64,000 bases of DNA from an uncultured Bacilli bacterium (GTDB lineage Bacteria > Bacillota_I > Bacilli_A > RF39 > UBA660): contig CANPXU010000004.1 in the NCBI GenBank assembly GCA_947586825.1, positions 4,939 to 68,938 of the forward strand. The letters are read 5' to 3'. The translations under genes and the position numbers were made by a program. A model generated the notes under the pieces. That model was not told the origin of the DNA, searched no databases, and was given only the letters and a program-made list of their open reading frames with translations. Positions 6,570 to 56,951 of the stretch are shown here, piece by piece. Positions within the stretch are counted from its first letter, which is position 1, and each line of letters starts with the position of its first letter.

Positions 6570-6603
6570 CAAAGATATTCATATAATAATTATAGGTGAT
6601 ACT

Positions 6604-6876
6604 ATGTTTCCAAATATACCCGGAGGTTTTAATCTATCAAGACTACTCGGAGGAATATCTAAGTCTTTAAATGTTGCTAATCAAGTTATCCCTATCTATC
6701 AACAACTTAGCCCAATGGTACAAAATGCCCGGGAAGCATTCGGTTCTTTAAAAGAAATGACTAATAGCAAAGTAAATAAACCCATTAATAATATGCCTAA
6801 AATGTCAGCTCCTAATAATATGAATCAAAAAAGAGCCATTATAAATAGCTCTAATAATCCATCTTTTTTCCAATAG
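6604..6876 (+). CDS. Small YqfQ-like protein (hypothetical)
   Basis: The motif NVANQVIPIYQQLSPMVQN resembles the Bacillus YqfQ/VrrA-like family as I remember it. It sits next to trmK-sigA-dnaG, as in Bacillus. Confidence 0.4.
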   Translation: MFPNIPGGFNLSRLLGGISKSLNVANQVIPIYQQLSPMVQNAREAFGSLKEMTNSKVNKPINNMPKMSAPNNMNQKRAIINSSNNPSFFQ

Positions 6877-8583: not shown

Positions 8584-10300
8584 CCTTTTTTAATTCTGTT
8601 AATCGCGCAATTAATTCGATCTTCTTGTTCATATCATTCTCGTTTTTAATTTGCTCTTTTATAGCCTTTATTTCATTATCATCAATACACCTAGACATAA
8701 TGCCTAGTAGTTTAACAAACTCTGCCTCACCTATGTCTCCCACCTTTAATGAGGAAATAACCCCATTTACATACTCGCTTATCTTATCATATTTTACGAT
8801 AAAGTCAATAAAACCTGCAATATCTATGTTATTATTTTTCTTAATATAACTACCTATTAAAGATACTGTTTCTCTTTCTATTTTGTTATCTAAATAGCCA
8901 AGTTTATTCATAAATATTTGATAGTATTCTTTATGAAGTAGCATCGCATAGATAACCTGATTACAAGCAAGTTCATAGCGATTTTTCTTTTCTTTAACTT
9001 CTTTTTCTTGCTTTTTCTCTACTACGGGTGGTGATGAAGCAATATTTTTCCTTATAATATTAGCATCTAAGCCATAATCTTTGCATATTTTAGCAATAGT
9101 TACTTCTTTTTCCAGTTCATCAGCACCTTTTAGGCTTTCTAAAACATCTTTAATATATGCTGTCAGTTCCTGAGGATTATCTAAATTTTTGCCCTCTTTT
9201 AAAGCTTCAATTTTATAATCCATATATTTTATAGCATGATTTATATTATCTTTTAAGGCATTTTCACCATATTTTCTAATATATTCATCAGGATCTTTAG
9301 CTCCACTTAAGCGTACAACATAAACATCAAGGTTCCCCTGCATCATCTGATCGCCTACTTTTAAAGTAGCGCTACTTCCTGCATTATCACTATCAAGAAT
9401 CAAAATAACCTTGCTATTTAGCCTTTTTAAAGCTTCAATTTGGGCTTTGGATATCGCAACACCCATCAAAGCTATAACATTTTTAATACCTCTTGCATAT
9501 AGCGATATAGCATCCATATTACCTTCGACAACGATAATCTGTTTATTTAATCTGGCCGTATCTTTAGCATTATAGTAGTTAAATAAAATATTACTCTTAT
9601 GATATATTATGGTTTCTTTAGTATTAATATATTTATTAGGCTCATCTTTTTTATAGGCTCTAGCCGTGTACCCAACGGGATTATTTTGCATATCAAAAAT
9701 AGGAATCATAATACGCTCAGTAAACATATCATAATAATCAATGCCACTTTTATTTAAAAGGCCTAAATCATAAGCTTTTTCTAAAGAGCTTTTTTTATTT
9801 TCTAAAAACTCTTTTAGCTTGCTATCTTTTAAAGATAATCCTATTTTAAAATCTTTAATTATCGCCTCATCAATACCACGACCCGCTAAATACTTTTTAG
9901 CATCAATACCTTCCGCGGAAGCTAAATTATTTTGATAAAACTTAAGTGATAAATCCATCATTTGATATTCATCTTTAAATTTACTTGATGTATCTTTAAC
10001 CGGGGTATAAGCAAAATCAATGCCTGTTTTATTAGCGACAATCTTAACCGCTTCGAGATAAGGGACATTCTCAAAGTTTTTTACAAAAGTAAAAACATTA
10101 CCTCCCGCATTGCACACAAAACACTTAAAGATGTTTAACTTTAAGGATACATGCATACTAGGGCTGTGATCTTCATGAAATGGACAAATGCCTACATAAT
10201 CACTACCCTTTTTTTCAAGAGGTACATAACTACCAATTATATCTGCAATATTAGCAGCTTCTCTAATTTGATTAATTTTGTCTTCACTAATAAATGCCAT
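8558..10300 (-). CDS. dnaG: DNA primase DnaG
   Basis: Zinc-ribbon [14 protein letters not shown]...[15 protein letters not shown], Toprim EGNMDAISL...DSDNAG, and dnaG-sigA gene order. Confidence 0.95.
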
Positions 10301-27950: not shown

Positions 27951-29537
27951 ATGCGGATACTTATCAAAGTAAAAGATGACAAATTACTATTTGCAACTCG
28001 TAAGCGTCTTAATAATGATGATAAAACCATTATTAATACCAACCTTATATCTAATGATGAAATATTCTTTACAGATGACTATGTAAAAGATAATCAACTT
28101 GTTGTAACATCTTTTCTAAATGCTTTAATTAAAAATTATAATTCTACTACTTTATCTTTTCAATCTATGGATGTAGCCGAAGTATTTATGAATATCATAA
28201 ATAAACTCAAAGGCATCAAAAATATTTATTTCGAATCAGATGAAGTACTATCTTATAATATTTGTGAAAAAATAACAAAATGTAATGCTATAAAATTTGT
28301 TAGTGCTAATTACATTCCAGCATATATGTTTGAGATGCTTGACAAATATAATATCATACCAGAGTCAAGAGATGAAGTATTATTTACTTCCAATTTTATG
28401 CAAATAAATTCACTAACTAATTATGCTACTATTTTTTACAAATATATGTTATATCTAGAATTTCCTTTTACTCCTGAAGATATGGATGATTTTGCTACTT
28501 TCTGCAGTATAAATAAAAATCTTAAGATTATCCATGTTAATAAACCAAACAGATTTAATCTCGAGGAAATTATTTCCATTTTAAAAGCTAATAAAAAGAG
28601 CAAAATAAAAATATACATTCATGGAGATGTTCAAGAACCTGATGTAATTGAGTATTTAAAAAGATACAATAAAACTCTTAAGAAACGATATAACATTATT
28701 TTAAAACTTACCTATTCTGATAAATATATAAGAGAAAATATTGCTAAACAAACTAATAATAATATTTTAAGAATGTGTTCCTACATTATTATTGCTTTAA
28801 TAGTTTCTTGTATTGCTTTTATAGGTTATGATAGTTATCGGTCAATGCTTAAAACTTCAACTATTCGTAAAGAACTAGAAAACATTATAGAATTTACAGA
28901 TACGACAGAAATAAAAAAAGATATTGAAGAAAAAAATGAAGGAAAAGTTGTTGTAAATGATGGATTGGCAGCGCTTACGACAATAAATCCTGAAATCGTG
29001 GGATGGCTTACTGTTAATAATACGAATATTGATGATGCTGTCTTGCAGGCCAGTGATAATGATTATTATTTAGCCCATGATATTTACCGTCAAGAAGATC
29101 CCGGAGGATGGATATTCTTAGACTATACAAATGATGTTGATGTTACTGATGCTAATACAGTTATATATGGTCATAATAGATACGGCAATGGCGTTATGTT
29201 TGGAACCCTTAATAGAACTTTACAAAGTAATTGGTATCTAAATGAAGAAAATCAAATAATAACTTATAAAACTTTATATGGTACCTATCGTTTTAAAATA
29301 TTCTCTATTTATATTACCCCAACAGATAATACCTATATTCAAACTAATATCCCAACTGCTGAAAGAGTTGACTTCTTTAATAAATTAGCTGCTAAAAGTA
29401 TTTATAATTTTGGTGTAACATTTAAAGAATCAGATAAAATAATTACTTTGTCAACTTGTCAAAGTGATGTTTCTAGATTAGTAGTCCATGGAGTTCTTAT
29501 TGATTCTGATACAAATAAAGAAAGTACTACTGAATAA
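27951..29537 (+). CDS. Class B sortase fused to a ~270-aa N-terminal cytoplasmic domain
   Basis: TM segment at about residues 275-295. C-terminal SrtB signature: IVGWLTVNNTNIDDAVLQASDNDYYLAHD...VIYGHNRYGNGVMFG...ITLSTCQ. The N-terminal domain is repeat-like and unassigned. Confidence 0.75.
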   Translation: MRILIKVKDDKLLFATRKRLNNDDKTIINTNLISNDEIFFTDDYVKDNQLVVTSFLNALIKNYNSTTLSFQSMDVAEVFMNIINKLKGIKNIYFESDEVLSYNICEKITKCNAIKFVSANYIPAYMFEMLDKYNIIPESRDEVLFTSNFMQINSLTNYATIFYKYMLYLEFPFTPEDMDDFATFCSINKNLKIIHVNKPNRFNLEEIISILKANKKSKIKIYIHGDVQEPDVIEYLKRYNKTLKKRYNIILKLTYSDKYIRENIAKQTNNNILRMCSYIIIALIVSCIAFIGYDSYRSMLKTSTIRKELENIIEFTDTTEIKKDIEEKNEGKVVVNDGLAALTTINPEIVGWLTVNNTNIDDAVLQASDNDYYLAHDIYRQEDPGGWIFLDYTNDVDVTDANTVIYGHNRYGNGVMFGTLNRTLQSNWYLNEENQIITYKTLYGTYRFKIFSIYITPTDNTYIQTNIPTAERVDFFNKLAAKSIYNFGVTFKESDKIITLSTCQSDVSRLVVHGVLIDSDTNKESTTE

Positions 29538-32217: not shown

Positions 32218-32580
32218 CTATTTATTGATATAAAATAAATCCATAAGAGCGTTATCAATTTCTTTTAATTGCTCGTTTTTAATAGTTCCAACATAGCCCT
32301 TTAATCTTTTTTTATCAATTACTCTAATTTGCTCCAACATTACTATAGAATTTGGTCTTATAGTATCAAATTGTTTTACTAATACATGACTTGGAAGTTC
32401 TATATTTTTTTTAGTAGATATAGGAGCAATAATTGTTGTTGGACCATGTTCATTACCAATATCATTTTGTATTACTACCACTGGCCTTATTCCACTCTGT
32501 TCACTACCAATAGTAGGATTTAAATCCGCATAAAAAATAGATCCTTTAACTATTTTCTTCATCTGTATCATCCTTTCCAT
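32218..32580 (-). CDS. mazF: MazF/PemK-family type II toxin endoribonuclease
   Basis: GSIFYADLNPTIGSEQSGIRPVVVIQNDIGNEHGPTTIIAPIS...MLEQIRVIDKKRL matches the PemK/MazF consensus. Confidence 0.85.
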   Translation of the reverse strand: MERMIQMKKIVKGSIFYADLNPTIGSEQSGIRPVVVIQNDIGNEHGPTTIIAPISTKKNIELPSHVLVKQFDTIRPNSIVMLEQIRVIDKKRLKGYVGTIKNEQLKEIDNALMDLFYINK

Positions 32581-32746
32581 TTTTTAATTCCCTAATTTTA
32601 ACTGATATATTCTTTCGCACATAAGGCAAATCTAGAATTCTACTATCATTAATAATCGTGTTAACTTGTTCTTTAATTTCAGCTTTTTCTTCACCTTCTA
32701 AAGTAAAAGAATATCGTTTATTAATTTTTATTTTATACTTTTTCAT
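32546..32746 (-). CDS. Putative cognate antitoxin (66 aa, acidic C-terminus)
   Basis: It overlaps the mazF start by 35 nt and is small with an acidic tail (KDDTDEENS). I recognise no AbrB/MazE-like motif. Confidence 0.5.
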   Translation of the reverse strand: MKKYKIKINKRYSFTLEGEEKAEIKEQVNTIINDSRILDLPYVRKNISVKIRELKNGKDDTDEENS

Positions 32747-33153: not shown

Positions 33154-33624
33154 CTAATTTTTTAATTTTTTCGAAATTTTTTCTAAAGCAATATCAATGC
33201 TAAACTTAACAGCCATTTTTGTACAATGTTCTTCATTTGCAATTTCTTCAAAAGTCATATCATCAAAGTAATATTTTTTTAACCTGTTTCGTTGGATCGA
33301 AGGCAGCTCTTTAATAGCTTTTTTTAATTCTTCATATAAAATATTATTTTCAACGATTTCATCGACTAATGGTGTCTTATTAGCAGCTTTTGAAGGCAAA
33401 TTATTTTCTAAAATATCTGAATGTTCTATATGGCGATCATATTCATTTAATATTTTAATATCATCAAGTTCAAACTTATCAAAAGCATAATATACTTCTT
33501 TATTAACTTTAACATTTTGCAAATGCCCTTTAGCATCTTTAAAAGTTACAATATATGTATTTTCAGAATAATTTAAAATATACGGATTATCTTTGCTTTT
33601 TCTTCTTTTTGGGCAATTACCCAT
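33154..33624 (-). CDS. Sigma-70 region-4-type DNA-binding regulator (ICE sigma-like factor)
   Basis: C-terminal LPSIQRNRLKKYYFDDMTFEEIANEEHCTKMAVKFSIDIALEKISKKL is a region-4 HTH. It resembles the Tn916 Orf7-type small sigma-like proteins as I remember them. Confidence 0.65.
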   Translation of the reverse strand: MGNCPKRRKSKDNPYILNYSENTYIVTFKDAKGHLQNVKVNKEVYYAFDKFELDDIKILNEYDRHIEHSDILENNLPSKAANKTPLVDEIVENNILYEELKKAIKELPSIQRNRLKKYYFDDMTFEEIANEEHCTKMAVKFSIDIALEKISKKLKN

Positions 33625-34357: not shown

Positions 34358-34825
34358 TTATTGTATTTCAAATTCAGCACTTATATAAAATTTATTATTA
34401 GGTTTATCATCTTTTTTAAAATATACTTCCTTAATTAAGCGGTACTTTCCCTTAGTAAAATTTCCATACTTACGTGTAAGAAGATCTATCTTTATTTTTA
34501 TTTGCCCTAACTCTTGAGATTTTACTTCTTCTTCATATAAGAAACAACCAACATTGTTAATTTCTTTTAATTCATACCATGTTCCATTTTTTTCTTTTTC
34601 GATACTAAAGCAGTAGTCATAATAAATACTCTGATCACTATTATTAGTAATAGTAAAAGTAGCCCCTTCATTAGTTATTGTTTCTTCGAGATTTTCAATC
34701 AATATATTAGAATTTTCAACTTTTATTTCAGATTTATCAGTCATGGTTACATCAGGTACTTCATTATTTTTATCACAAGAACACACTAAGAATAAACTAA
34801 TAAATAAGAATAATATTTTTTTCAT
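34358..34825 (-). CDS. Small lipoprotein with beta-sandwich-like domain (hypothetical)
   Basis: Signal plus lipobox MKKILFLFISLFLVCSC. The mature part (GATFTITNNSDQSIYYDYCFSIEKEKNGTWYEL...GKYRLIKEV) looks like an Ig-like beta domain. Confidence 0.6.
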   Translation of the reverse strand: MKKILFLFISLFLVCSCDKNNEVPDVTMTDKSEIKVENSNILIENLEETITNEGATFTITNNSDQSIYYDYCFSIEKEKNGTWYELKEINNVGCFLYEEEVKSQELGQIKIKIDLLTRKYGNFTKGKYRLIKEVYFKKDDKPNNKFYISAEFEIQ

Positions 34826-34975
34826 AATCGATTACTCCTTTCGCTGTGTTTAGCACCCACATAGTAATAAAAATTATTGTTTTATCTATTATACAATAAA
34901 CAAATTATTAAACAATTAACTGATTTAATAACAATATCCAGAAATTTAAAACCGTGGATTTTAAAATATTATTTC

Positions 34976-36190
34976 TTAATATAAAGTTATACCTAAAGAG
35001 GTGGTTATATTTCGTATTTTTATAGCATATGATTTATCATTATGCGTTAAAGACATGGTTCCTAATAAGTTAGGAGATTGTTTAAGTTCGAATAATGCTG
35101 ATCCGCTATCTCCTGTTTCATTTACTAAATCAGTTTGTATTAAATCTGTAAGAAATACTTCATCGCCAGTATGTGGGTCTGGTGCAGAATCTGAAGAGTA
35201 TGCAGAAGTTACAGTACCAATAGTAGCACCAGTCACTGCTCCATATTTTCCAACCTTTTGACCAACAAAAGGTAAAGTCGCAGCACCTAAGGTTATTCTA
35301 GGATAATATGGCCAGTTAGGAACGACATTTGAAATAGAGTCTGAAGTTTGTACAAACATTGCATCGACTGTACCACCATCTTTAAAATCTCTTTTTAAAA
35401 TTGGATTTCCATTAAATGTTGTAGTACCATCCATAACACAATGGCCTGCCGTAACATACCCTGCCTTGTTATTATATTTGGCTCTAAACCCTACTGAACA
35501 ACCACCAACTTTGCTACCAGGACTTAATGATGAAGTTAGAATTGCTTTATTGCTAGAATTAAATACTATTAAATTTGAATCTAAAACATTTACACGAAAT
35601 TCCTTTTGTTTGGCATCTGTATTATTCTCTAAATTAACAACAACCCTATTTTTAATAACATCTACATAAAAACCTACTACATTATCATAATGTAATGATG
35701 AAATTAAATCATTCAATGAATTATATATATGCAATAAATCATTAAATGAGTAATCAACATATTCTATAATTTCATTATCAGCAGCATTTGTTGTAGAATA
35801 ATAAGATGAATAAAGAGCATTCTTTGTACTTGGAACTTCATCTTTTACTATTTGTAAAACTAGCTTTTGATCATCATTTATATACATTCCTCCATAATAT
35901 TTTGGATATTCTTCCTCGTCCATGGTTGACGAAATTTTAAGCATATTCTCAATCTTATTCGCAGATTCTACTGCATAATTATTCAAGGAAATTATCTCTT
36001 CATAATTAGAACCATATTTTTCTTCTAAGGCTAAAGCTAAAGCGTTTTGAAATTCCTCAGTTGCACGCATAGCCTCAAAATCTATAGTTTCAGTTTCATT
36101 AATCTTTGTCGATGTATTTTGTTTTTTTGCTATTAAAGAGATTGATAGTGCACTTACCACTATTAATCCTATTGTTAATATTTTTTTCAT
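34976..36190 (-). CDS. Secreted S1-family serine protease, streptogrisin/alpha-lytic-protease-like, with N-terminal pro-region
   Basis: Signal peptide. The catalytic-domain motifs GGCSVGFRAKYNNKAGYVTAGHC (His), VDAMFV (Asp) and ETGDSGSALF (Ser) align with S. griseus protease B as I remember it. Confidence 0.8.
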   Translation of the reverse strand: MKKILTIGLIVVSALSISLIAKKQNTSTKINETETIDFEAMRATEEFQNALALALEEKYGSNYEEIISLNNYAVESANKIENMLKISSTMDEEEYPKYYGGMYINDDQKLVLQIVKDEVPSTKNALYSSYYSTTNAADNEIIEYVDYSFNDLLHIYNSLNDLISSLHYDNVVGFYVDVIKNRVVVNLENNTDAKQKEFRVNVLDSNLIVFNSSNKAILTSSLSPGSKVGGCSVGFRAKYNNKAGYVTAGHCVMDGTTTFNGNPILKRDFKDGGTVDAMFVQTSDSISNVVPNWPYYPRITLGAATLPFVGQKVGKYGAVTGATIGTVTSAYSSDSAPDPHTGDEVFLTDLIQTDLVNETGDSGSALFELKQSPNLLGTMSLTHNDKSYAIKIRNITTSLGITLY

Positions 36191-36254
36191 ATTTTTAATT
36201 CCTTCCTTTTTTATTTTTTTAAATAATCATAACTTAATATTTAATTCATTAACT

Positions 36255-36375
36255 CACATCCTTTTAAAAATTATTGCAATAATTTTTTAGAAGAATTACT
36301 CCTTCTAAAGGCAAAGACAATGTAGCACATTATAATTTTTAAAAGTAGAGAAAAATAAGCACGTTATAATTTAAA
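36255..36375 (-). repeat. Promoter/leader module copy A (upstream of the protease gene)
   Basis: Homologous to 37855-37975, with identical blocks caataattttttagaagaattact, tagcacattataa and aaaataagcac. On the minus strand TATAAT lies at 36329-36334. Confidence 0.7.
36266..36287. promoter_or_regulatory. 22-bp perfect palindrome, candidate operator
   Basis: AAAAATTATTG|CAATAATTTTT, about 45 nt downstream of the module's TATAAT on the minus strand. Confidence 0.5.
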
Positions 36376-36404
36376 AATGGGAGGGATTATATATCCCCTC
36401 TTCC
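36373..36404 (-). terminator. Terminator after the paralog-1 / small exported protein operon
   Basis: Minus strand: GAGGGGAT-ATATA-ATCCCTC(C) followed by CATTTTT. Confidence 0.6.
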
Positions 36405-36448
36405 AATATTTGTAGGTTTAAGTGCTTTTTTGTTTGTTTATATATTTT

Positions 36449-36874
36449 TTAATCATTAATAGAAGTTGTTCCTTCACTAGTGGCTATCCCTTTGTCAACT
36501 ATGTTATTTAAATTATTTTGTGAATTTTCTAACTCGTCTAAACAAATTATTTCAAATATTGGATCTTCCTCTAATGTGTATGGATTACCTTCTGAATCAT
36601 ATTCAACGTGCGAGCGAATAAAAAGAGAAGGTTCTTTACATGTAATTTCCTTTCCTTCATATTCGGCAAATTTATAAGCATCTTCAGTATTAGAATATCC
36701 TTGTTCAATTATTTTATCCTTAAGAGCCTGTAATTTTTCCTCATTTGTTATTTTTGCCTTGTCTTCGTTATTAAGACTTTTAGCAGACGAATTCTCACTT
36801 GTAATAAATAGTATACCGATAGTAGCGGCTATTAACGCAGCAACAGCTAATACTATGATTATAGTTTTTTTCAT
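36449..36874 (-). CDS. Small membrane-anchored/exported protein (hypothetical)
   Basis: N-terminal TM MKKTIIIVLAVAALIAATIGILFI. It starts 37 nt downstream of the upstream gene, which suggests co-transcription. Confidence 0.55.
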   Translation of the reverse strand: MKKTIIIVLAVAALIAATIGILFITSENSSAKSLNNEDKAKITNEEKLQALKDKIIEQGYSNTEDAYKFAEYEGKEITCKEPSLFIRSHVEYDSEGNPYTLEEDPIFEIICLDELENSQNNLNNIVDKGIATSEGTTSIND

Positions 36875-36911
36875 TTTTATTTCTCCTTATATACCAAATT
36901 ATATTTTAAAT

Positions 36912-37784
36912 CTAATCCGTAATAGTAAAATAAACTCCTGTCATATTATCATAAGAACTTCTAAGGTTAGCATCACTAAAATATACAGAACCACCTAAAC
37001 CATTAGCATTTAATGTATAACTCATTGATTGAGCAAGCGTTAAAGGCTTAGTAGCATGTTGATATGTTCCATAAAATTTGGTTGTTGTTGCTCCAGTAAA
37101 ATATCCTGAAACAGATATTATATTAATAGGTCGAAATTCATTTCCGCTTCTTATCAAAACAGATGTTCCATAACCATTAGACAGTTTTTTTCTTTGGCTT
37201 TCAGGTGTAAAATATCGCTCAGTATCTCTATGTTCTGCAGCACCATAGGATGTAGCTACAAATGTTCCGCCTGATGATTCCCAACGAATTGCATTAATGT
37301 CATAAGATGATATTTGTGGTATTGTTTTCCATTTTAAAACGCCAAAAATTTCATATTCACTATCAAATTGATAAGCTAGCATATAATATTGTTTGGCATT
37401 AGTTTCCCAGCAAACTACTCCTTCTGAACATAAATCCATAGGCATAATTGGCTCAAAATTATTATATTCTTCTTCAGTTATTTCCTGCTCATAATTAATA
37501 ATTCGACCATTTGCACCTTTAAAAGTACTAGTCATAATATACTTAGTTTCTGAAAATATTTTTTTACAATTTGAAATATCTTCCATTAATAAATCGTAGT
37601 GATCTTGAGATAAAAAATCCACTAATTCCCAACTAGTTGCATCTACAAGATACTCATAATCTTCTTTTGACATAATAACGCCTTTTTGGTTTGTATAATA
37701 TTCGTCTGTATTTTCTAATGCTGATACATTATTAATAGCAGATAAAGATAAAAATACTGCTATAAAACTAAAAAGTTTTTTCAT
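36912..37784 (-). CDS. Secreted protein, cargo paralog 1 (unknown family)
   Basis: Signal peptide MKKLFSFIAVFLSLSAINNVSA. It shares ordered motifs with 38760-39476: YYTN..SKEDYEYL, PIMPMD, ETNAK, LKW...SSYDI, NGYGTSV, GTYQHA, SYDNMTGVYFTI. Confidence 0.7.
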   Translation of the reverse strand: MKKLFSFIAVFLSLSAINNVSALENTDEYYTNQKGVIMSKEDYEYLVDATSWELVDFLSQDHYDLLMEDISNCKKIFSETKYIMTSTFKGANGRIINYEQEITEEEYNNFEPIMPMDLCSEGVVCWETNAKQYYMLAYQFDSEYEIFGVLKWKTIPQISSYDINAIRWESSGGTFVATSYGAAEHRDTERYFTPESQRKKLSNGYGTSVLIRSGNEFRPINIISVSGYFTGATTTKFYGTYQHATKPLTLAQSMSYTLNANGLGGSVYFSDANLRSSYDNMTGVYFTITD

Positions 37785-37854
37785 AATTTAATTTCTTCCT
37801 TTCTATATTTTTGAAAAAATTTAGTATATATAATATTTATGTTTAATTTATTGG

Positions 37855-37975
37855 CTCACCTCCTTTATAATTATTTCAATAATTTTTTAGAAGAATTACT
37901 TCTACTAAAAACAATTTAGCACATTATAAATCTTAAAAATAGGGGAAAATAAGCACACACTAAAATAGTGCTTAT
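37855..37975 (-). repeat. Promoter/leader module copy B (upstream of paralog 1)
   Basis: See copy A. TATAAT lies at 37923-37928 (minus strand). The imperfect palindrome ATAATTATTTCAATAATTTTTT is at 37867-37888. Confidence 0.7.
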
Positions 37976-38225
37976 TTATCTCTTTTATTATTTTTTGAAA
38001 AACGAAAAGCCTTTTTAGCTTGTTTATATATTTCTTTAAGTTCTTTTTTGGAATATATATATACGGACAATAAAGATCTTGTTCAAAGTCATCAAAAGAA
38101 TATTTATTTGCTCCAAAAAGCTCATCATGAATTTTCATTTCAAAAATGCATCTTTTTAAAACCTCACTTATAGCATACTCATGACTTACATCACAATATT
38201 TTTTTAATGAATTATCAATATTCAT
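37905..38225 (-). CDS. Hypothetical 106-aa ORF whose 3' end reads through a terminator hairpin and module B
   Basis: The first ~75 aa look like a normal soluble protein. The last ~30 codons are encoded by the hairpin ATAAGCAC...GTGCTTAT and the promoter module, so the true end is doubtful. Confidence 0.35.
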   Translation of the reverse strand: MNIDNSLKKYCDVSHEYAISEVLKRCIFEMKIHDELFGANKYSFDDFEQDLYCPYIYIPKKNLKKYINKLKRLFVFQKIIKEINKHYFSVCLFSPIFKIYNVLNCF

Positions 38226-38332
38226 CTATTATATTTCCTTTCATAATATAAAGTTGCAACATTTTATCATATTCCCAAGACTTTTGATTATAGCAAAATA
38301 AAAAGAGCAACAATATCTTAGGTAATGATAAA

Positions 38333-38763
38333 GTGCATAAGCTTAAACTAAGATGTTGTACAGAAGAGTTGGAAATGATACAAATTCAAATAGGCCATGT
38401 ACTATGAGTTAGTAATAAGACTATATGTAGATGGGAAACTGTAAAAAATTACATACCTAAAAAAATTAATTAAGTTTTATAATATATATAATTACAGAAT
38501 TGACTACGTCTTTTCATTAACAAATACTAACACGCAATATACTAATATTAACGTAAATCAAAAAAAATGGCAGTAATTTAAAAGCTATTCGCAAAAAGCA
38601 CAACCTAACGCAAGAAAAAGTGGCTAATAAAATGAGGATTTCACAGTCTTGTTATAGTCAATATGAAAACGGGAAATCTTTATTAACCACTATATCATTG
38701 TATTCTTTTTCAAAGGTTTTTAATGTATCTGCAGATCAAATATTGAATAGAGAAAAATGTTAA
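38333..38763 (+). pseudogene. Decayed tandem XRE-type HTH regulator (two frameshifts in A-runs plus one in-frame TGA)
   Basis: Own three-frame reading: ...KLKLRCCTEELEMIQIQIGHVL*VSNKTICRWETVKNYIPKK / LIKFYNIYNYRIDYVFSLTNTNTQY...NQKK / NGSNLKAIRKKHNLTQEKVANKMRISQSCYSQYENGKSLL...ADQILNREKC*. The frame changes fall at A7 (38459-38465) and A8 (38560-38567). Confidence 0.6.
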
Positions 38764-39476
38764 ACAGCAATATTTACTCCACCCATATGATCATAATAGC
38801 TATATACAGAACTATCAAATAAGAACACCTTACCACTACCATTGTTAGAAATTGTATATTTTTGACTATTATTCAAACTAATGCTGTATTTAGCATGTTG
38901 ATAACTAGCAAATACATTTCCAGTACCATTTACTCTGTATGATTGCGTAAGTATAATATTACTGTCATAGTCAGGTAATTTTATTGATACACCAAAACCA
39001 TTACTATCACTTTTTATATATGTTGAATTATATGCTGATGATGAACTAGATAATCTAGTAGATACTGAACTAGCCAAAGAAACACCATCTAAATATGCTC
39101 CCATTATATCATAGCTCCTTGTCGCAGGATCTCCAAGCCATCTTAATGTTACTGTAATTAAGGCATAACTTGGGAAAGCAGATTTAGCTATAACAAGGGA
39201 TTTGGCATTAGTAGTATGTGATGTATCCAAAGGCATTATAGGTAAATACTTATTAATTTGAATATTCTCGCTAATCCCATTGCTTAAAATAATGTCATAT
39301 TCTTCTAATGTCATATTTTCTTGGTACCCATCCCATAGGATTTTAGATACAAAATCATATTCTTCTTTTGTAAATGAAATATTATTTACATTAGTATAAT
39401 ATACTTCTGAAGCATGAACACTAGTTATCCCCATATAAAAGAATGCAATAGCAATTACAAATAGTAATTTTTTCAT
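38760..39476 (-). CDS. Secreted protein, cargo paralog 2 (unknown family)
   Basis: Signal peptide MKKLLFVIAIAFFYMGITSVHA. Motifs: YYTN..FTKEEYDFV, PIMPLD, TTNAK, LRW...RSYDI, NGFGVSI, ASYQHA, YYDHMGGVNIAV. Confidence 0.7.
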   Translation of the reverse strand: MKKLLFVIAIAFFYMGITSVHASEVYYTNVNNISFTKEEYDFVSKILWDGYQENMTLEEYDIILSNGISENIQINKYLPIMPLDTSHTTNAKSLVIAKSAFPSYALITVTLRWLGDPATRSYDIMGAYLDGVSLASSVSTRLSSSSSAYNSTYIKSDSNGFGVSIKLPDYDSNIILTQSYRVNGTGNVFASYQHAKYSISLNNSQKYTISNNGSGKVFLFDSSVYSYYDHMGGVNIAV

Positions 39477-39575
39477 TTTACTTTTCCTTTCTAACTAAAT
39501 TATATTAATTAAACCAAAAAATAAAAGAGCAAATTAAGCTCTAAACTAAAATATTAGCTGGGCTTATTATGCTCT

Positions 39576-40688
39576 TTATATTAATTCATACAAATATGAC
39601 CAAAAGTATTCAATCTTTTTTTCTTCATTTTCACAAGTTCCTATTGAACACGAAACGTTCTCATTTTCATAAATAAAACTATATAAAATTTCTTTACCAT
39701 CATATGCAGTATATGACAAGGATTTCCCGTATGTGTAAAATATCCAATCCTCTATAGAATTTCCATCTTTTGATATTACTAAACCAATGATTCCTGAATC
39801 AGGAAGATAATAGGATGAATACTCTAAATCTTCGTCTTTTTTATTATACTTATAAGTATTGTCTTCTTCTTTATAAGTCTTTTTAATCATATTTATTATA
39901 GGATTTAAGTCTGTAGGAATTATATCTAATTCATCATTATTTTTTTGTGTTATTGTTTGTTTTTCTTTTTTAAAAAACAAATCATTATTAATATAATCTT
40001 GTGTAAAAAGTAACTTTATTGTTTCTGAACCTCCATTATCATATTCTAAAAACAAATATAAATTATTATCAATGTCTTTAAAATAATCAGTTTCAAAATA
40101 CTCATTCTCACCATAATACTGACTAATTAAAATGTTTGTATTATCTCCGCTATAAATTACATTTTCTATATTTTTATAATATAATGTGATTTTTTTAATA
40201 TTCAATTCTTTTTTAGTTTTTATTTCATTTATACTAAAATAAATTTTGCCTCTCGTTTTTATGAAAACTCCATTATCTATAAATGCATAATTTCCACTAC
40301 TCGAAATAGTATAAACCTTTATTGATTTATAGGAATTTATAAAGTAATATATACCAAGAAAGGCTATAATACAAACAATAATAATAGATAGTCTCTTTAT
40401 TATTTTTTTACCGTTTTTTACATCTTCATACAAAATTGCTGATACTTCATTTACTTCTTTCTCATTTTGCTTATTTAAGATTTCACCATAAAGGATTTCG
40501 TTAACAGTCACATTAAATACATCACTTAATTTTAGTAACATTTCATGACTTGGAAGAGTTACTCCTCTTTCCCATTTACTAATGGAATCTCTCCCAATCC
40601 CTAACAACTTACCTAGTTTTTCTTGAGATAACTTTTTATTATTTCTAAGTTCTGCAATAAAGTTTCCTATTTTATCTGAATTAATCAT
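39576..40688 (-). CDS. Membrane-anchored XRE-family transcriptional regulator with extracytoplasmic C-terminal domain
   Basis: N-terminal HTH IAELRNNKKLSQEKLGKLLGIGRDSISKWERGVTLPS, a TM segment LSIIIVCIIAFLGIYYFI, then ~240 aa of unassigned sequence. ATG at 40688 is preferred over the track TTG at 40718. Confidence 0.7.
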   Translation of the reverse strand: MINSDKIGNFIAELRNNKKLSQEKLGKLLGIGRDSISKWERGVTLPSHEMLLKLSDVFNVTVNEILYGEILNKQNEKEVNEVSAILYEDVKNGKKIIKRLSIIIVCIIAFLGIYYFINSYKSIKVYTISSSGNYAFIDNGVFIKTRGKIYFSINEIKTKKELNIKKITLYYKNIENVIYSGDNTNILISQYYGENEYFETDYFKDIDNNLYLFLEYDNGGSETIKLLFTQDYINNDLFFKKEKQTITQKNNDELDIIPTDLNPIINMIKKTYKEEDNTYKYNKKDEDLEYSSYYLPDSGIIGLVISKDGNSIEDWIFYTYGKSLSYTAYDGKEILYSFIYENENVSCSIGTCENEEKKIEYFWSYLYELI

Positions 40689-40774: not shown

Positions 40775-42409
40775 TCATTTTGTTTTATAATAGTTAAATT
40801 GTGTTGTTTTATTCCACTCATAAGCACTCCACAAATCTGTGTTATCGCTTGCAGGATCTACTATTTTTATACTATTGTCATCTATATCAATAATTGCAAC
40901 CCAGTGCTGATTACCCGCTGTAGCCCCTAGCACTTCTGCTGTTAAATAATATCCCTTATCAATATATTCTTTTATTAAATTTAATTTATCAGTCTTGTTT
41001 TTATCTTTTAGATTAATATTTCCAACAAAGCTAAAATTTGGAACAACTTCACTAAGTTTACTATAAATTAAGTTGCCTTTTTCATCAAATCCACCTTTAC
41101 TATTTAATGCCTCCACAAAAGTACCAGGGTTAAAAGGAACGATTGTTGTATTAGCACCAGATCTTTGAATTTGAATAGCTATTGAAGTAATTAAACAACC
41201 TATGTCCCCTATTGTAGCAGTTGTATTGCCTATTCTTATATTCGACCAACTTTGACCTCCTTGTCGCCATGCCATATAGTCACCTGTATTTTTTAAACCA
41301 TAAAGTACCCCGCTCCAAAGAGAATCATATTCACTACTAGAAAGTTCACTGTACTGTCTCATTTGAGCTGGACTAAAGTGATAAATGTTTAACATTTGCT
41401 CAGCAGTTTTCGATGTCACATTTAAATGTAGTACCCTTTTTTGTACTGGTTTAGGCATTTCTTCTATATTAACTCCACGATTAGTTACCATTTCTGTTCT
41501 AACCTCAAATGATATACTATTCATATCCCAAAATATTTGTTTAACTATTTGTTTTTTATTATTATCTATTGTAACTACTTCTTGAGTTTTTGATCCATTT
41601 GTTTGTTTTAATGTATATATTATTAAAATATCTTTCCAAGAAGCCATATTTCCTTCGAAAACATATTCATCATGTAAATTTTGATCTTGTATAGTCTGAA
41701 TTTTATCGTAAAATTCTTGATTACATTCAGCAATAACCTCTTTCATAGTAAGAGAATTAGTATTTGTTTTTTCGCCACTAAAAAAGATTCCAAAAATAGA
41801 TCCAAGAAGAAGACCTATTAAGCATATTACAATAATTACAATTAAAGCAACGCTACCAGCGGCAACTAAGGCAGATATAAGAGCTTTTGTCCCAGCGATT
41901 AAAGCTTTAATGGAAGATATCGTAGTCTTTACTACAGTTTTTGTAGCTTTAACGGTTTTTTCGGCTGTTTCTCTCGCAACCTTTATTGCCCTTTGCGATA
42001 ACTTAACTGATTCTTTTTTTATTTTATCAGTATTTTTAATTATCCTTTCTGATGTTTTAATTGTGTTTTTAGTATTCTTTATTACATTTTTACTTGTCTT
42101 TTTTATTTCATGGTTATTTTTTAATTCTTTAATTTTAGTTTTTGTTTTCTGAATATTATCTTTAGTTTTAATTAATGATTTACGACCTTCCTTACTAACT
42201 TCATTTTTAGCTTTATTAATGCCCTTCTTATATGCAAGTTTTAGTTTCTCACTTCCATATTCGTTGATATCATTATCATTTTGAACAGTATCCTCAGATT
42301 TTTCTTTTATTTTTACAATATTCTCATTTATTTTTTTAGTTTGGGCTATTCCTTTATTGAGAGTTTTAATTCCTTTTTTTGTTAAGTCTTTAACTTTGAT
42401 CTTTGACAT
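40775..42409 (-). CDS. Conjugation-associated cell-wall hydrolase (cysteine peptidase domain; VirB1 analogue)
   Basis: Lys-rich coiled N-terminus and a TM (AAGSVALIVIIVICLIGLLLGSIFGIFF). The C-terminal domain has the Cys motif GDIGCLITSIAIQ and the His motif GNQHWVAIIDID. It is adjacent to VirB4. Confidence 0.65.
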   Translation of the reverse strand: MSKIKVKDLTKKGIKTLNKGIAQTKKINENIVKIKEKSEDTVQNDNDINEYGSEKLKLAYKKGINKAKNEVSKEGRKSLIKTKDNIQKTKTKIKELKNNHEIKKTSKNVIKNTKNTIKTSERIIKNTDKIKKESVKLSQRAIKVARETAEKTVKATKTVVKTTISSIKALIAGTKALISALVAAGSVALIVIIVICLIGLLLGSIFGIFFSGEKTNTNSLTMKEVIAECNQEFYDKIQTIQDQNLHDEYVFEGNMASWKDILIIYTLKQTNGSKTQEVVTIDNNKKQIVKQIFWDMNSISFEVRTEMVTNRGVNIEEMPKPVQKRVLHLNVTSKTAEQMLNIYHFSPAQMRQYSELSSSEYDSLWSGVLYGLKNTGDYMAWRQGGQSWSNIRIGNTTATIGDIGCLITSIAIQIQRSGANTTIVPFNPGTFVEALNSKGGFDEKGNLIYSKLSEVVPNFSFVGNINLKDKNKTDKLNLIKEYIDKGYYLTAEVLGATAGNQHWVAIIDIDDNSIKIVDPASDNTDLWSAYEWNKTTQFNYYKTK

Positions 42410-52729: not shown

Positions 52730-53362
52730 TTATTTTTCTAATTCGCAAATTACTATAATTTGGTTGTTTGTATTATGCCTGCAAGTTATAAGTGTCAATG
52801 TACTTATATCATTATTTCTATTTAAATTAAGAGTTCCTTTTTTTTCAATATCATATATACGGACAACCTTATAATTATAAGTTTTTCCTTTATAATCTAT
52901 TGTTACTTTATCGCCCACTACTAGCTTATCTAAATCTTGAAAATAAGAAATGCTTGCGTTACCAGAATGAGCAGCTAAGATAACATTACCATTTTCTTCA
53001 TCTGGCATATTTGAATCGTCTAATATTTCGACATTGTAACTAATATTATTTAAGTAACTATTTCGATCAACTAAACCTCTAATCAAATTGATTTTTGGAA
53101 TTTTAATAACCGCAATATATTCAATTTTATTAGTTTTTTGAGCTTGATTTTCGTCTTTCAAATGATCATTTTGATTATCTTCAACTACCACTTCTTGCTG
53201 TTCAATATAAAAATTTTTTATAGCTTCTTGCTCCATAGTAGTTATTACTTTTCTTGAAACAAAATGATAAATAATTAAAAGTAGACCTACAAAAATAAGT
53301 AAAAAGCCGATTATTTCTAACCAGCTTTTTTTACTTCTTTCTTTTTTGGTTTTCACTAACAA
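52730..53362 (-). CDS. Sortase (ICE-encoded, dedicated to the adjacent adhesin)
   Basis: N-terminal TM, His motif VILAAHSG and Cys motif TLTLITCR. It overlaps the adhesin 3' end by 32 nt. Confidence 0.8.
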   Translation of the reverse strand: MLVKTKKERSKKSWLEIIGFLLIFVGLLLIIYHFVSRKVITTMEQEAIKNFYIEQQEVVVEDNQNDHLKDENQAQKTNKIEYIAVIKIPKINLIRGLVDRNSYLNNISYNVEILDDSNMPDEENGNVILAAHSGNASISYFQDLDKLVVGDKVTIDYKGKTYNYKVVRIYDIEKKGTLNLNRNNDISTLTLITCRHNTNNQIIVICELEK

Positions 53363-56300
53363 TTATGAACCCACCTATTAAAATTAATAATAATCCACCA
53401 ATGATAAGTGTTTTTATTTCTGTTTTATCGGTATCAGGAATTTTGATTATTTTTTCATCTTTTATGGTCGATTTAACAACTTGGCCATCTTCTAAAATCT
53501 CAAAATACATTTTTTCTTCGTTTAAAAGATATCCTTCTGGGGCTTCCCTTTCTAGAATATAATATTTACCATATTCTAAATTTTCTATTATGATCTTACC
53601 TTCTTCATCGGTTTTTCCTGAAAATACTAATTCATCGTTTTCGTTATAAATTTCTATTAAAGTATTTGGAAGTGCTTCTCCCGTAGATAAATCTTCTTTG
53701 GTAAATTCAAGAGTTCCAACTATTTTCTTATTAGTCATTCCAGCTTTAACTATTTCTCCATTTTCTTTAATTTCGAAGTATATCTTTTCATCAGTAAGTT
53801 TATATCCAGTAGATGGCTCTTTTTCTATAATATAATATTTTCCGTATTCTAGATCTTCTATTATGACTTTTCCCTCTTCGTTAGTTATTCCCGAAAATAT
53901 TAATTCATCGTTTTCGTTATAGATCTCTATTAAAGTATTTGGAAGCTTTTCTCCTGTAGATAAATCTTCCTTGGTAAATTCCAAAGTTCCAGTAATTTTT
54001 TCGTTGGTCATTTCAGCTTTAACAACCTTACCATCTTCTAAAATTTCAAAATACACTTTTTCACCATTTAGAACATATCCTTCCGGAGCTTCTTTTTCCA
54101 GGATATAGTATTTGCCATACTCTAAATCTTTAATAACAATTTTTCCTTCATTATCAGTTCTTCCTGAGAATATTAATTCATCATTTTCAGCTTTATAGAT
54201 TTCTATTAAAGTATCTGGAAGAGAATCACCAGTAGATAGATCTTTTTTAGTGAATTCTAAATCACCTTTTATTTTCTCATTTGTCATATTTGCTTTAACT
54301 ATTTCTCCATTTTCTTTAATTTCAAAATATACTTTTTCCTCATTAAGTTTATATCCGGTAGATGGCTCTTTTTCTATAATATAATATTTTCCGTATTCTA
54401 AATCCTCTACTAAAATTTTACCTTCTTCGTTTGTTTTACCCGAAAATACTAATTCATCGCTTTCGTTATAGATTTCTATTAAAGTATCTGAAATACCTTT
54501 ACCAGTTGTTAGATCTTCCTTAGTAAATTCGAGATCACCTTTTATTTTTTCATCCTTCATATTAGCTTTAATTACTTGGCCATCCTCTAAAATCTCAAAG
54601 TACATTTTTTCTTCGTTAAGAATATATCCTTCTGGAGCTTCCTTTTCTAGAATGTAATATCTTCCTAACTTCAAATCACTAATAACTATTTTCCCTGTTT
54701 CATCTGTTCTTCCTGAGAATATTAATTCATCATTTTCAGTATAAATTTCTATTAAGGTATTAGGAAGAGTTTCGCCTGTAGATAAATCTTCTTTAGTAAA
54801 TTCTAAAATTCCTTTTTTCAAATAGTTTAAAGTGGTATATGATTCATACACAATTTTTGTTTCTGAATCAATTTCTGTTAGTTCAAAATAATGTTTTTCA
54901 TTATCAAGCACATACTCATCACCTGTTTTTACTTCAATTAAGTAATACTTACCTAAAGGCAGCTCTTTACTAATTGCGTAACCATCAGCGTTGGTAGTCA
55001 AAGTATCAACTAAATCATCTTTACTATAATATAAATGATTAGCGTCAGAAGAAAGTATATCTTCTGCAGCATAAATTTCAAATACTACTCCTGATAAATT
55101 TTTAGAATCATAATAATACTCTCCTTTATCAATCACTATTTTTTCACCCGTTTTATGAATTTCTATTTTTCCTTTAATAGGATAATCTTTATATGTAACT
55201 TCGATCACAGGTCCATAAGTTGTATATACATAATGAGAATCATCACCGATAGTAAACTCTACTCCATCTTTATTAATCAAATAACCTTTCGGTGACATTA
55301 TCTCTACAATTTTGTAATGTCCTGCTTCAAGTTTTAAAAATGTCATAGATTTGCCTGTCTCGTCAGTTACAAACTTATCATAAACTTTTCCTCCTACATA
55401 TTGAGAAACATATTGTCCTGTATCAAGATTCATGATTCTAAAAGTTGCTCCTGCTAAAGCAATAGTTTTTCCTGTTTCATAATCAACTTTTTTAATTTGA
55501 ATATAGGCCGATAGTTTATTATTAAGAATATTATAATAGTGTTCTTTAGGACTATCCTCGTCGACCGTGATATAAAAATCATTAATCTTTTGATATCCAG
55601 TAGTTGAGTTTAATTGATGAAATCGCCAAACTCCATAAGGTAATTCAATAGAAGCATACCCGTTTTTATCTGTTGTAATTTTGTTGAATAATCTGCCATC
55701 CGGATAATATATTTCAAATGTAATATTCTGTTCTGCATTTAGAAATTTTGTTTCTCCATCAACATAATCATATTGTTTTAAAATTGTAATGTCATTTTTT
55801 ATAACTTTTTCTAGCACATCTACAGATACATCTACATGGTTGCTATCAATTGTAAAATAATATTTTTGTGTATCTAATAAATACCCTTTACTTGGAGTAA
55901 TTTCTTGCAAATAAAATCTCCCCATTTTTGGAAGATAATCACTTTGTGCATGGCCCTTTGAATCTGTTGTCATCTCACCGATATAGTTTCCATCTTCGCT
56001 ATAAATTCCATAAACTGCACCTTCTAAAGTGGCTTGCCCTTGTGCAGTTGATGATCTTGTATCATTGTCTTTTTTATCAAGTGATATTTTTCCTCCTGCT
56101 ATATTAATATTGATAGATGTTTGAACTGGATCATAACTTCCAACTTGTACAATGTCTTGTGTACCAGGCTTAACATATACAATAGTTGGATGTGTATATC
56201 TTGTATCTTTTTTAGAAAATGTAAGAGTAGTATTTCCAACATTATTTGCTGTTATATTCAAGTCATTTCCGTTTTTATTTATTGTAACTATGTTATTACT

Positions 56301-56951
56301 TGATGTTACCTCAAAATTTGAAAGAACACTATTTAAATCAGTTATTTTTTTAGAACTTCCTATTACCATATCTATATTATCAATTTCAAACTTTGGTAAT
56401 ATAGCGTGTTTATTTAGTAAATTTTCCATTTCTTGCATTTCTGCATCATATTTTGTTGATTTTTGGATTTGTCCTAAGGTATCAGTAAAATAAATATCTA
56501 ATCCACTAGGTACTGTTTGCCAAATCATGACTTGCGTTATTGAATACCATTTTAAATCACTATGATCTACTTCACTATCAGTATAACCATATCCATAATA
56601 AGCAAGTAATTGAATTCTTCGCCACTGATCCTGTGTAATATTTGCAATAGTTGCTTGATTATTATCATATCCTGTATATGTTTCTTGGATATTTAATAGT
56701 TCAGTTGGTTCCATACAATACACAAACTGATTATCACTATTTCTTGTAATCATTGATAGTTGTTGATACTCTATATATCCATCTGAGTGCTTTTTATCAA
56801 CATAAGCTTCAGGTATAAACATATATTTATCGTTAAATGTTTCAGTATATGTATTCTCATCCGCCTTGGCAGTTGGCCCTATAGTAATCACTATTAGTAA
56901 TAATAACAAATATTTTAATTTTCTTTTCATCTTTCCCTCCTTTTTTATCAA
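53331..56951 (-). CDS. Surface adhesin: N-terminal thioester (TQxxIW) domain + SpaA/CnaB-type repeats + C-terminal sorting signal
   Basis: Signal peptide, the Cys motif FVYCMEP and the Gln motif SITQVMIWQT (thioester-domain signature). There are multiple GYxL...YxF prealbumin-like repeats. The C-terminus is KIPDTDKTEIKTLIIGGLLLILIGGFIIVSENQKRKK. Confidence 0.8.
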   Translation of the reverse strand: MIKKEGKMKRKLKYLLLLLIVITIGPTAKADENTYTETFNDKYMFIPEAYVDKKHSDGYIEYQQLSMITRNSDNQFVYCMEPTELLNIQETYTGYDNNQATIANITQDQWRRIQLLAYYGYGYTDSEVDHSDLKWYSITQVMIWQTVPSGLDIYFTDTLGQIQKSTKYDAEMQEMENLLNKHAILPKFEIDNIDMVIGSSKKITDLNSVLSNFEVTSSNNIVTINKNGNDLNITANNVGNTTLTFSKKDTRYTHPTIVYVKPGTQDIVQVGSYDPVQTSININIAGGKISLDKKDNDTRSSTAQGQATLEGAVYGIYSEDGNYIGEMTTDSKGHAQSDYLPKMGRFYLQEITPSKGYLLDTQKYYFTIDSNHVDVSVDVLEKVIKNDITILKQYDYVDGETKFLNAEQNITFEIYYPDGRLFNKITTDKNGYASIELPYGVWRFHQLNSTTGYQKINDFYITVDEDSPKEHYYNILNNKLSAYIQIKKVDYETGKTIALAGATFRIMNLDTGQYVSQYVGGKVYDKFVTDETGKSMTFLKLEAGHYKIVEIMSPKGYLINKDGVEFTIGDDSHYVYTTYGPVIEVTYKDYPIKGKIEIHKTGEKIVIDKGEYYYDSKNLSGVVFEIYAAEDILSSDANHLYYSKDDLVDTLTTNADGYAISKELPLGKYYLIEVKTGDEYVLDNEKHYFELTEIDSETKIVYESYTTLNYLKKGILEFTKEDLSTGETLPNTLIEIYTENDELIFSGRTDETGKIVISDLKLGRYYILEKEAPEGYILNEEKMYFEILEDGQVIKANMKDEKIKGDLEFTKEDLTTGKGISDTLIEIYNESDELVFSGKTNEEGKILVEDLEYGKYYIIEKEPSTGYKLNEEKVYFEIKENGEIVKANMTNEKIKGDLEFTKKDLSTGDSLPDTLIEIYKAENDELIFSGRTDNEGKIVIKDLEYGKYYILEKEAPEGYVLNGEKVYFEILEDGKVVKAEMTNEKITGTLEFTKEDLSTGEKLPNTLIEIYNENDELIFSGITNEEGKVIIEDLEYGKYYIIEKEPSTGYKLTDEKIYFEIKENGEIVKAGMTNKKIVGTLEFTKEDLSTGEALPNTLIEIYNENDELVFSGKTDEEGKIIIENLEYGKYYILEREAPEGYLLNEEKMYFEILEDGQVVKSTIKDEKIIKIPDTDKTEIKTLIIGGLLLILIGGFIIVSENQKRKK
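53450..54816 (-). repeat. Five tandem ~88-aa (about 265-bp) coding repeats in A-B-A-B-A order
   Basis: The units start KG(I/D)LEFTKEDLSTG... Type A carries EKEAPEGY..FEILEDG and type B carries EKEPSTGYKL..FEIKENGEIVKA. Coordinates are approximate to +/-5 nt. Confidence 0.8.

Follow-up and report, generated by a model that had tools for sequence, protein, structure and literature searches.

What kind of system does a conjugative element carry when a run of its genes encodes proteins that are exported or anchored in the membrane? The question is raised by a gene block at positions 34358-40688 of the window, by which we mean the whole 64,000-nucleotide stretch of DNA analysed here, taken from contig CANPXU010000004.1 of an uncultured Bacilli bacterium (assembly GCA_947586825.1). 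The block lies in an integrative and conjugative element (ICE) and encodes a regulator with an XRE-type helix-turn-helix (HTH) domain and a transmembrane (TM) segment (the XRE-TM regulator), two paralogous secreted proteins (the short and the long paralog), an acidic protein of 141 amino acids (aa), a secreted S1 protease and a lipoprotein with a Big_14 domain (Table 1). An initial annotation, made from the DNA letters, had taken these genes for a self-contained, regulated, extracellular module, with a protease-matured toxin, an exclusion function and a host-interaction factor among its candidate roles.

A conserved cassette in a conjugative element

Judged by gene order, the XRE-TM regulator, the short paralog, the protease and the Big_14 lipoprotein are a co-inherited core module and not a chance assortment, because the genes follow the same order in a chromosomal locus (L035) and, at the equivalent site, on diverged ICEs (L041, L043 and L045). 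These loci, referred to like all fetched loci by their L numbers, were sampled through the protease, the three ICE loci by a metagenome scan combined with local tagging by hidden Markov models (HMMs). In L035, which has non-ICE flanks, an XRE-TM regulator (43% identical to that of the window) is followed by a short member of the paralogs' family (49%), a protease (35%) and a 152-aa anchored protein; a member behind an XRE-TM gene in L018 is also 49% identical to the short paralog. In L041, L043 and L045 the order is a homolog of the 544-aa type IV secretion system (T4SS) protein that flanks the window cassette, XRE-TM regulator, short member, protease, Big_14 protein, small XRE protein and sigma-like gene. 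The cassette proteins there are 28-36% identical to those of the window, versus 44-50% for the backbone proteins. L060 reads extracytoplasmic function (ECF) sigma factor, TM protein, long member and protease.

The gene-neighbourhood check proposed in the initial annotation had been meant to reveal whether these genes occur together in other elements, and the order of XRE-TM regulator, short member and protease is indeed kept in L035, L041, L043 and L045. That unrelated cargo genes encoding exported proteins came together by chance is accordingly very improbable, and largely refuted by synteny: gene order persists across loci at 28-49% protein identity and with different flanks, and such low identities argue against L035 and L041-L045 being recent transfers of a single cassette. 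What can be said for chance is that the long paralog, the 141-aa protein and a 106-aa open reading frame (ORF) do not accompany the core as conserved partners, and that terminator-like sites lie between units. The description as a self-contained module fits the four-gene core and does not extend to the block as one unit, to which the long paralog and the 141-aa protein appear to have been added separately.

Genes of the element include those for a large serine recombinase, a PemK toxin, a VirB4-like ATPase, PrgI, a coupling protein, a MobA/VirD2 relaxase and ParB, together with a surface protein of TED-SpaA type. With T4SS, relaxase and recombinase present and the same slot filled in L041 and L043, gene content and position show the block to be an accessory cassette of a conjugative element. 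For the 544-aa flanking protein, whose gene follows that of the VirB4-like ATPase, L041 and L043 encode a 45%-identical homolog at the equivalent position, and a homolog of the sigma-like gene at the other flank (44-50% identical) lies downstream of the cassette in both.

All six minus-strand ORFs of the block are in the window ORF list where the initial annotation had placed them, and hydropathy shows an N-terminal hydrophobic segment in both paralogs, the 141-aa protein, the protease and the lipoprotein. Two parts of that description changed. The first flank had been called a T4SS hydrolase, an identity that rests on position and is not confirmed by any Pfam, NCBIfam or PDB sequence match to the 544-aa protein; and the six genes are not the whole content of the block, which also holds the 106-aa ORF and a plus-strand HTH remnant, both between the paralogs.

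Three further features of the element deserve mention. Its surface protein (53331-56951, minus strand; 1206 aa) has a thioester domain and nine SpaA-type domains. Just beyond the recombinase, a 528-aa protein with a C-terminal sortase domain is encoded at 27951-29537 on the plus strand. At the recombinase end of the element (32218-32746, minus strand), the gene for the PemK/MazF-type toxin (120 aa) has a small overlapping ORF upstream (66 aa), and the two are probably a toxin-antitoxin pair.

Table 1. Features of the cassette and its flanks, ordered by position in the window (ORF, open reading frame; HTH, helix-turn-helix; TM, transmembrane; T4SS, type IV secretion system)
Feature	Position	Strand	Length	Details
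Sigma-70 region-4-like regulator (flank, ICE regulatory end)	33154-33624	-		Pfam Sigma70_r4_2, 26.6 bits
Big_14 Ig-like lipoprotein	34358-34825	-	155 aa	Recurrent protease partner
S1 protease, streptogrisin/alpha-lytic type	34976-36190	-	404 aa	Secreted; pro-region ~200 aa
Protease upstream region	36177-36362	-		Two adjacent palindromes, AGAAGGAGTAATTCTTCT and AAAAATTATTGCAATAATTTTT; centre 36270-36283
Terminator-like hairpin after 141-aa gene	36381-36400	-		Consensus scan
Acidic protein	36449-36874	-	141 aa	N-terminal membrane anchor (hydropathy); directly downstream of long paralog
Long paralog	36912-37784	-	290 aa	Signal peptide; family HMM E ~1e-80
Long-paralog upstream region	37771-37956	-		Copy of protease upstream region; palindrome ATTATTTCAATAAT at 37870-37883
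ORF without export signal	37905-38225	-	106 aa	Status uncertain; 3' end overlaps duplicated upstream region and hairpin
Small XRE HTH frame, probable remnant	~38560-38763	+		Reads KKNGSNLKAIRKKHNLTQEKVANKMRISQ after stop codon; no canonical start before GTG 38620
Short paralog	38760-39476	-	238 aa	Signal peptide (hydropathy); member of the unannotated secreted family, conserved core; family HMM E ~2e-52
Terminator-like hairpin between regulator gene and short paralog	39526-39542	-		Consensus scan; pattern match only
XRE-TM regulator	39576-40688	-	370 aa	From ATG; public gene call of an identical element concurs
T4SS-associated membrane protein (flank)	40775-42409	-	544 aa	Putative wall hydrolase by position only

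A large family of secreted proteins

The short and long paralogs are 29% identical (BLASTP, E 2e-17), and the ordered motifs by which the initial annotation had recognised them as paralogs turn out to be conserved columns of a wider family alignment. An exhaustive profile search through 1.84 billion cluster representatives returned 1,185 family representatives at E <=1e-3, 449 of them at E <=1e-30, each standing for a 50%-identity cluster from gut and rumen metagenomes; a word-indexed search had returned only 14 relatives. Neither paralog matches anything in Pfam, NCBIfam, PADLOC or PHROGs, none of 120 diverse members matches a Pfam family able to represent the domain, and the family profile finds nothing below E 0.3 among PDB sequences. 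The family was not found in a scan of viral contigs, nor the long paralog in plasmids (tblastn). With 1,185 representatives, no library or PDB sequence match and only weak fold matches, the secreted family is real, large and unannotated, and has no solved relative. The initial annotation had been unable to place the paralogs and had allowed that they might yet prove to belong to a characterised family or that the genes might not keep company elsewhere; the paralogs stay outside known families after all these searches, including Foldseek against PDB and BFVD, and the genes do occur together elsewhere.

The family has conserved polar motifs of its own (ETNAK, SYD, NGxGxS, YQHA and YDxMxGV). Residues P156, D162 and H243 are invariant, and T128, K131, W152, S160, Y241, Q242, Y278 and D279 nearly so. 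An AlphaFold2 (AF2) model of the long paralog is confident (predicted local distance difference test, pLDDT, 84.5; predicted template modelling score, pTM, 0.79) and consists of a helical/hairpin N-terminal region with two TxEEY motifs, followed by a C-terminal beta-sandwich. Its top Foldseek neighbours in PDB are Ig-like adhesin and pilin domains (RrgB, ACE19 and CNA), which match with a probability of 0.97-1.0 and E ~2e-4, yet weakly, at a query-based template modelling score (TMq) of 0.23-0.30. Foldseek against the viral models of BFVD gave nothing useful. One member, P0143 (516 aa), carries two N-terminal CBM2/CBM49-like domains before a complete family module, the sole odd architecture in 160 members.

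Several candidate identities were tried and rejected. A fibre of the TasA/camelysin type (Peptidase_M73) has no Pfam match in the 120 members and is absent from the top 50 Foldseek matches; beta-barrel pore-forming toxins of the leukocidin/NetB type have no Pfam match either, and a Foldseek probability of 0.23-0.77 at TMq ~0.16-0.20; WxL/Csc surface complexes and PL7-type lyases are supported by no profile or fold match.

The model bears on one alternative that we consider unlikely, in which the paralogs would build a secreted fibre, coat or adhesin as its major and minor subunits, with the anchored proteins encoded downstream as attachment or assembly partners and the protease processing the subunits. 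The Ig-like beta-sandwich with its pilin and collagen-adhesin neighbours is what such a structure would lead one to expect, tandem pairs of a short and a long member recur (in the window, L004, L012 and L018), and the N-terminal domains of P0143 resemble carbohydrate-binding domains of the CBM2 type. The fold matches are weak, however (TMq 0.2-0.3), and the paralogs have no LPXTG motif, lipobox or wall-binding domain, end shortly after the last beta-strand without a C-terminal hydrophobic tail, and match neither TasA/Peptidase_M73 nor any pilin family. Moreover, the invariant D162 and H243, with the nearly invariant T128, K131, Q242 and D279, suggest a reactive or catalytic site more than a plain scaffold. 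By conservation only, K131, D162 and D279, and T128, Q242 and H243, are also candidate residues for an intramolecular isopeptide or ester cross-link.

Neighbours of the family genes

Looking up exact proteins and scanning GTDB species genomes yielded 24 distinct loci sampled through the family, the genome-contig scan being run with a 6-sequence family alignment. Their hosts are gut metagenome-assembled genomes (MAGs) labelled Bacilli, Clostridium, Eubacterium, Roseburia and Lachnospiraceae. In 14-15 of the 24, a family gene adjoins a membrane-spanning regulator, and these regulators are of three unrelated types. Six loci have an XRE-TM regulator with an ectodomain homologous to that of the window; four, and a fifth in which the distance is 2.9 kb, have an ECF sigma factor with a TM protein of ~270 aa; and four have a LytTR response regulator with a GHKL kinase, once together with AgrB. 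A single-TM protein of 222-227 aa adjoins the family gene in 3/24 loci, and no recognised regulator does so in 6/24. The ectodomains of the three regulator-associated groups of TM proteins show no mutual relation by hhalign.

Next downstream of the family gene, about 15 of the 24 loci encode a small anchored protein or lipoprotein, drawn from several unrelated groups. The slot occupied by the 141-aa protein in the window holds a non-homologous protein of the same general kind in many of the loci. Two of the loci (L007 6379-9828 and L028 6652-10458) have an XRE-TM regulator and a single family member immediately upstream of spoIVA. Going by these neighbours, in two different Bacilli MAGs, this is a fixed chromosomal site in that lineage and not mobile DNA.

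The protease and its lipoprotein partner

By the order of its catalytic triad, the GDSG motif and the similarity of its catalytic domain, the protease falls into the S1 streptogrisin/alpha-lytic group. Its PDB matches are 2oua (1.6e-7), 2ea3 (2e-6), SGPA (5e-4) and SGPB (1e-3), with alpha-lytic protease also among them. In 20 relatives, neither the triad (H250, D276 and S362, the last within GDSG) nor the C231/C251 pair varies. The nearest clusters, ~27 in number, are metagenome proteins without names; the cluster representative P0161 is identical to the window protease. The nearest named relatives are all actinobacterial, mainly from Streptomyces (E 1e-9 to 1e-6), in keeping with the initial annotation, which had described an S1 protease with an intact triad and of a type more usual in actinobacteria. 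Among plasmids, tblastn found only two distant matches, on Bacteroides plasmids. The pro-region reaches E 0.014 against Pfam PF02983 (15.9 bits versus a cut-off of 23.4, over 20 residues only), and PF02983 is present in more distant relatives of the protease.

Residues 38-152 of the lipoprotein are a Big_14 domain (PF20251; 3e-13, 50.1 bits versus a cut-off of 27), preceded by a lipobox-like site, LVCS|C. A Big_14 gene adjoins protease relatives in L033/34, L038, L039, L040, L041, L043-45, L047 and L061, which makes at least eight distinct loci with the pair, and in L033/34, L038, L039, L040, L047 and L061 the pair occurs without a family member or an XRE-TM gene. The Big_14 lipoprotein is the protease's most constant partner.

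Some observations on protease-related loci stand apart from this. Stand-alone exported proteins of 224-242 aa in L049-L051 (~6866-7555) and L058/L059 (1597-2325) correspond to a protease-type pro-region without a catalytic domain. The gene for a 52%-identical protease in L033 (~9880-10000) seems to lack a signal peptide, by frameshift or assembly error, and ATG AAA AAA CTA TTT TAA stands just upstream of it in another frame. Genes of the ABC_tran+FtsX type lie near the protease in L033 and L035.

A membrane-tethered regulator and its relatives

The N-terminus of the window regulator matches Pfam HTH_3 (3e-15). Its single TM segment (residues ~95-120, hydropathy 2.68) is preceded by KNGKKIIKR and leaves ~250 residues outside, close to the ~240 aa of the initial annotation, which had also proposed the arrangement of an XRE HTH, one TM helix and an outside domain. 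With a DNA-binding domain and a membrane span in one polypeptide, the regulator belongs, by its predicted architecture, to a known class of transmembrane transcription regulators, represented in Gram-positive bacteria, among others, by BcrR (bacitracin resistance) and BreG (bacteriocin synthesis) (PMC10269533). It is homologous through its ectodomain to the regulators encoded next to family members in L018, L007, L004, L024, L028, L035 and L041. The AF2 model of the ectodomain (pLDDT 78) has two beta-rich domains and a disordered linker, and Foldseek against PDB returned nothing below E 0.006.

Further regulators with an XRE HTH and one TM segment, of 429-447 aa, were found at L046 1739-2956, L048 6494-7837, L053 2272-3561, L054 6551-7840, L055 103-1446, L056 2664-3953 and L057 6497-8322. 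In L046, L048 and L052-L057 the ectodomain of these regulators is homologous to the protease pro-region (profile positions ~52-212). The reading frame in L057 runs on via frameshifted ORFs into a protease catalytic half and looks like a decayed HTH-TM-pro-protease fusion. L056 encodes, at 5662-6684, another regulator with an XRE HTH and a TM segment (340 aa), whose ectodomain matches the Big_14 lipoprotein of the window (phmmer, 2.8e-8). The closest XRE-TM homolog, 61% identical in the ectodomain, is in L064 (10001-21110; ERZ27060014, the sample of the window element), where its neighbours are an 819-aa ABC_tran+FtsX protein, a second ABC protein, two tandem Big_14 proteins and a second XRE-TM regulator of 370 aa.

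It is conceivable, though in our judgement improbable, that the cassette is a regulated-proteolysis circuit in which the anchored Big_14 protein would restrain the secreted protease, and the protease would cleave the ectodomain of the XRE regulator and so switch it on or off, the family proteins being merely the regulated output. Precedents for the parts exist among the gut-metagenome regulators just described, with a pro-region ectodomain (L046, L048 and L052-L056) or a Big_14 ectodomain (L056), in the apparent fusion of L057, and in the close homolog that sits beside two Big_14 genes in the window's own sample; in TcpP/TcpH and ToxR/ToxS, partner proteins control the proteolysis of transmembrane regulators (PMC10269533). 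Against such a circuit, hhalign finds no relation between the XRE-TM and protease families, and gives a probability of 1% for the ectodomain of the window-type regulator against the pro-region. Most loci with an XRE-TM regulator and a family member also lack the protease, and no cleavage site or site-2 protease was identified.

A duplicated control region and an added unit

The interval from the short member to the protease is ~2.6 kb longer in the window than in L035 and L041, and the long paralog is missing from the otherwise syntenic cassettes of L035, L041 and L043. A region of ~186 bp is present in two copies, upstream of the protease and of the long paralog, as direct repeats D1-D3 with 74-86% identity and a spacing of 1594-1600 nt. 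Common to both copies is a core of two adjacent palindromes, AGAAGnAGTAATTCTTCT and AAAAATTATTGCAATAATTTTT, lying at 36259-36293 in one copy and at 37860-37894 in the other, and alignment places the same core upstream of the 52%-identical protease in L033/L034. The repeats show two predicted transcription units to share one control region, and the long paralog with the 141-aa protein looks like a window-specific unit of 1.6 kb that was added under a copy of the protease control region. The palindromic core is more likely a DNA operator than a structured RNA, because the duplicated region matches nothing in Rfam and its RNA fold is not significant (z -1.5).

The plus-strand HTH frame between the paralogs is oriented divergently to the short paralog; none of ATG, GTG and TTG occurs in it ahead of residue 20, and an out-of-frame ATG lies within an A-run just upstream of it; it is probably the frameshifted remnant of a regulator that arrived with the inserted unit. 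The 106-aa ORF has no homologs outside the same element (Pfam scan and fetched loci) and the 141-aa protein has none in the fetched loci; scans of Pfam, NCBIfam, PADLOC and PHROGs matched neither. A promoter scan was uninformative in this AT-rich block, with 57 sites versus 58.8 expected.

Proposed role of the cassette

We tentatively favour, as quite possible, a reading of the cassette as a signal-regulated protease/effector system that would serve regulated antagonism or surface remodelling to the benefit of carriers of the element. The regulator ectodomain would sense an outside cue, and the regulator would control the adjacent genes from the membrane, possibly via the candidate palindromes. 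After export, the protease would fold and become active through its pro-region, and the anchored Big_14 protein at the producer surface would partner it, most likely as a shield or inhibitor. As the regulated extracellular output, the family proteins would be either substrates matured by the protease or independent effectors. Antagonism or surface remodelling is suggested by the presence of quorum-sensing-type and stress-type regulators, by the variable anchored proteins downstream and by carriage on mobile DNA, as well as by the lytic history of the streptogrisin/alpha-lytic protease group.

Five points weigh against this interpretation. The 24 loci that were sampled through the family all lack a protease near the family gene, and the family therefore does not need the protease. 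The palindromic core is also found in L033, where there is no XRE-TM gene within 10 kb upstream, which leaves the link between regulator and operator unproven. Terminator-like hairpins (consensus scan) divide the block into several transcription units. The family fold resembles no toxin, and adhesin Ig-like domains only weakly (TMq <=0.30). Finally, Big_14 is a domain without known function, on which literature searches (PF20251/Big_14) gave nothing relevant.

A wider reading joins the regulators, the protease and the family, and we regard it as a long shot. The membrane-tethered XRE regulators would be wired to a dedicated secreted protease of alpha-lytic type in an undescribed class of circuits of gut Bacillota, with some regulators bearing the protease pro-domain or Big_14 as a sensor, the activity of the secreted protease as the signal, and the beta-sandwich family as the common regulated effector. 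Because it lies in a tet(M)-like slot, with the regulatory genes of the element downstream on its own strand, such a circuit could also link activation of the element to an outside cue.

The family comprises more than 1,000 50%-identity clusters in gut and rumen metagenomes to which no role has been assigned, and the three kinds of membrane-spanning regulator beside its genes mark a regulated extracellular output that may be important to these bacteria. The link to a pro-protease and Big_14, together with the conjugative cargo slot, makes a testable module of four to six genes, by which a competitive or surface trait could pass from one gut bacterium to another. The analysis likewise places Big_14 domains, and the alpha-lytic-type proteases of low-GC bacteria, in a functional context for the first time.

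Comparison with known systems

As far as we found, the four-gene combination has not been described before, while its building blocks are each of a known kind. The slot recalls that of Tn916, in which tet(M) lies between the transfer genes and the regulatory/recombination end; the cassette likewise stands between the last transfer genes and that end, on the same strand. Unlike Tn916, the element has a large serine recombinase and a relaxase of the MobA/VirD2 type, its cargo is not a resistance gene, and no leader-peptide attenuator was seen.

The C-terminal beta-sandwich of the family has its nearest structural neighbours in the CnaA/DEv-IgG domains of CNA, ACE19 and RrgB, from which the paralogs differ in having no sorting signal, repeats or sequence similarity, and low TM-scores. 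By analogy only, the protease and Big_14 genes may be set beside lysostaphin/Lif and zoocin A/Zif, where the gene for a secreted hydrolase also adjoins one for a cell-bound protein on mobile DNA. Lysostaphin and zoocin A are M23 peptidases whose immunity proteins modify the cell wall, and no component of the cassette is homologous to either pair.

Like the window regulator, BcrR of Enterococcus and BreG of Lactobacillus combine an N-terminal DNA-binding domain with a membrane span and an outside-facing part, and their genes, too, lie by presumed targets with exported or envelope functions. BcrR has an XRE-type HTH and four TM helices without an ectodomain, whereas the window regulator has a single TM helix and a large ectodomain, built of two beta-rich domains and matching no PDB fold.

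The protease corresponds to the streptogrisin/alpha-lytic group (SGPA, SGPB, alpha-lytic protease and the Thermobifida and Nocardiopsis proteases), with which it shares a matching catalytic domain, the conserved triad, the first disulfide and a long N-terminal pro-region. It differs from them in its identity of ~30% or less, its occurrence in low-GC gut bacteria and its pairing with a Big_14 lipoprotein, and some loci reuse the pro-region as a regulator ectodomain.

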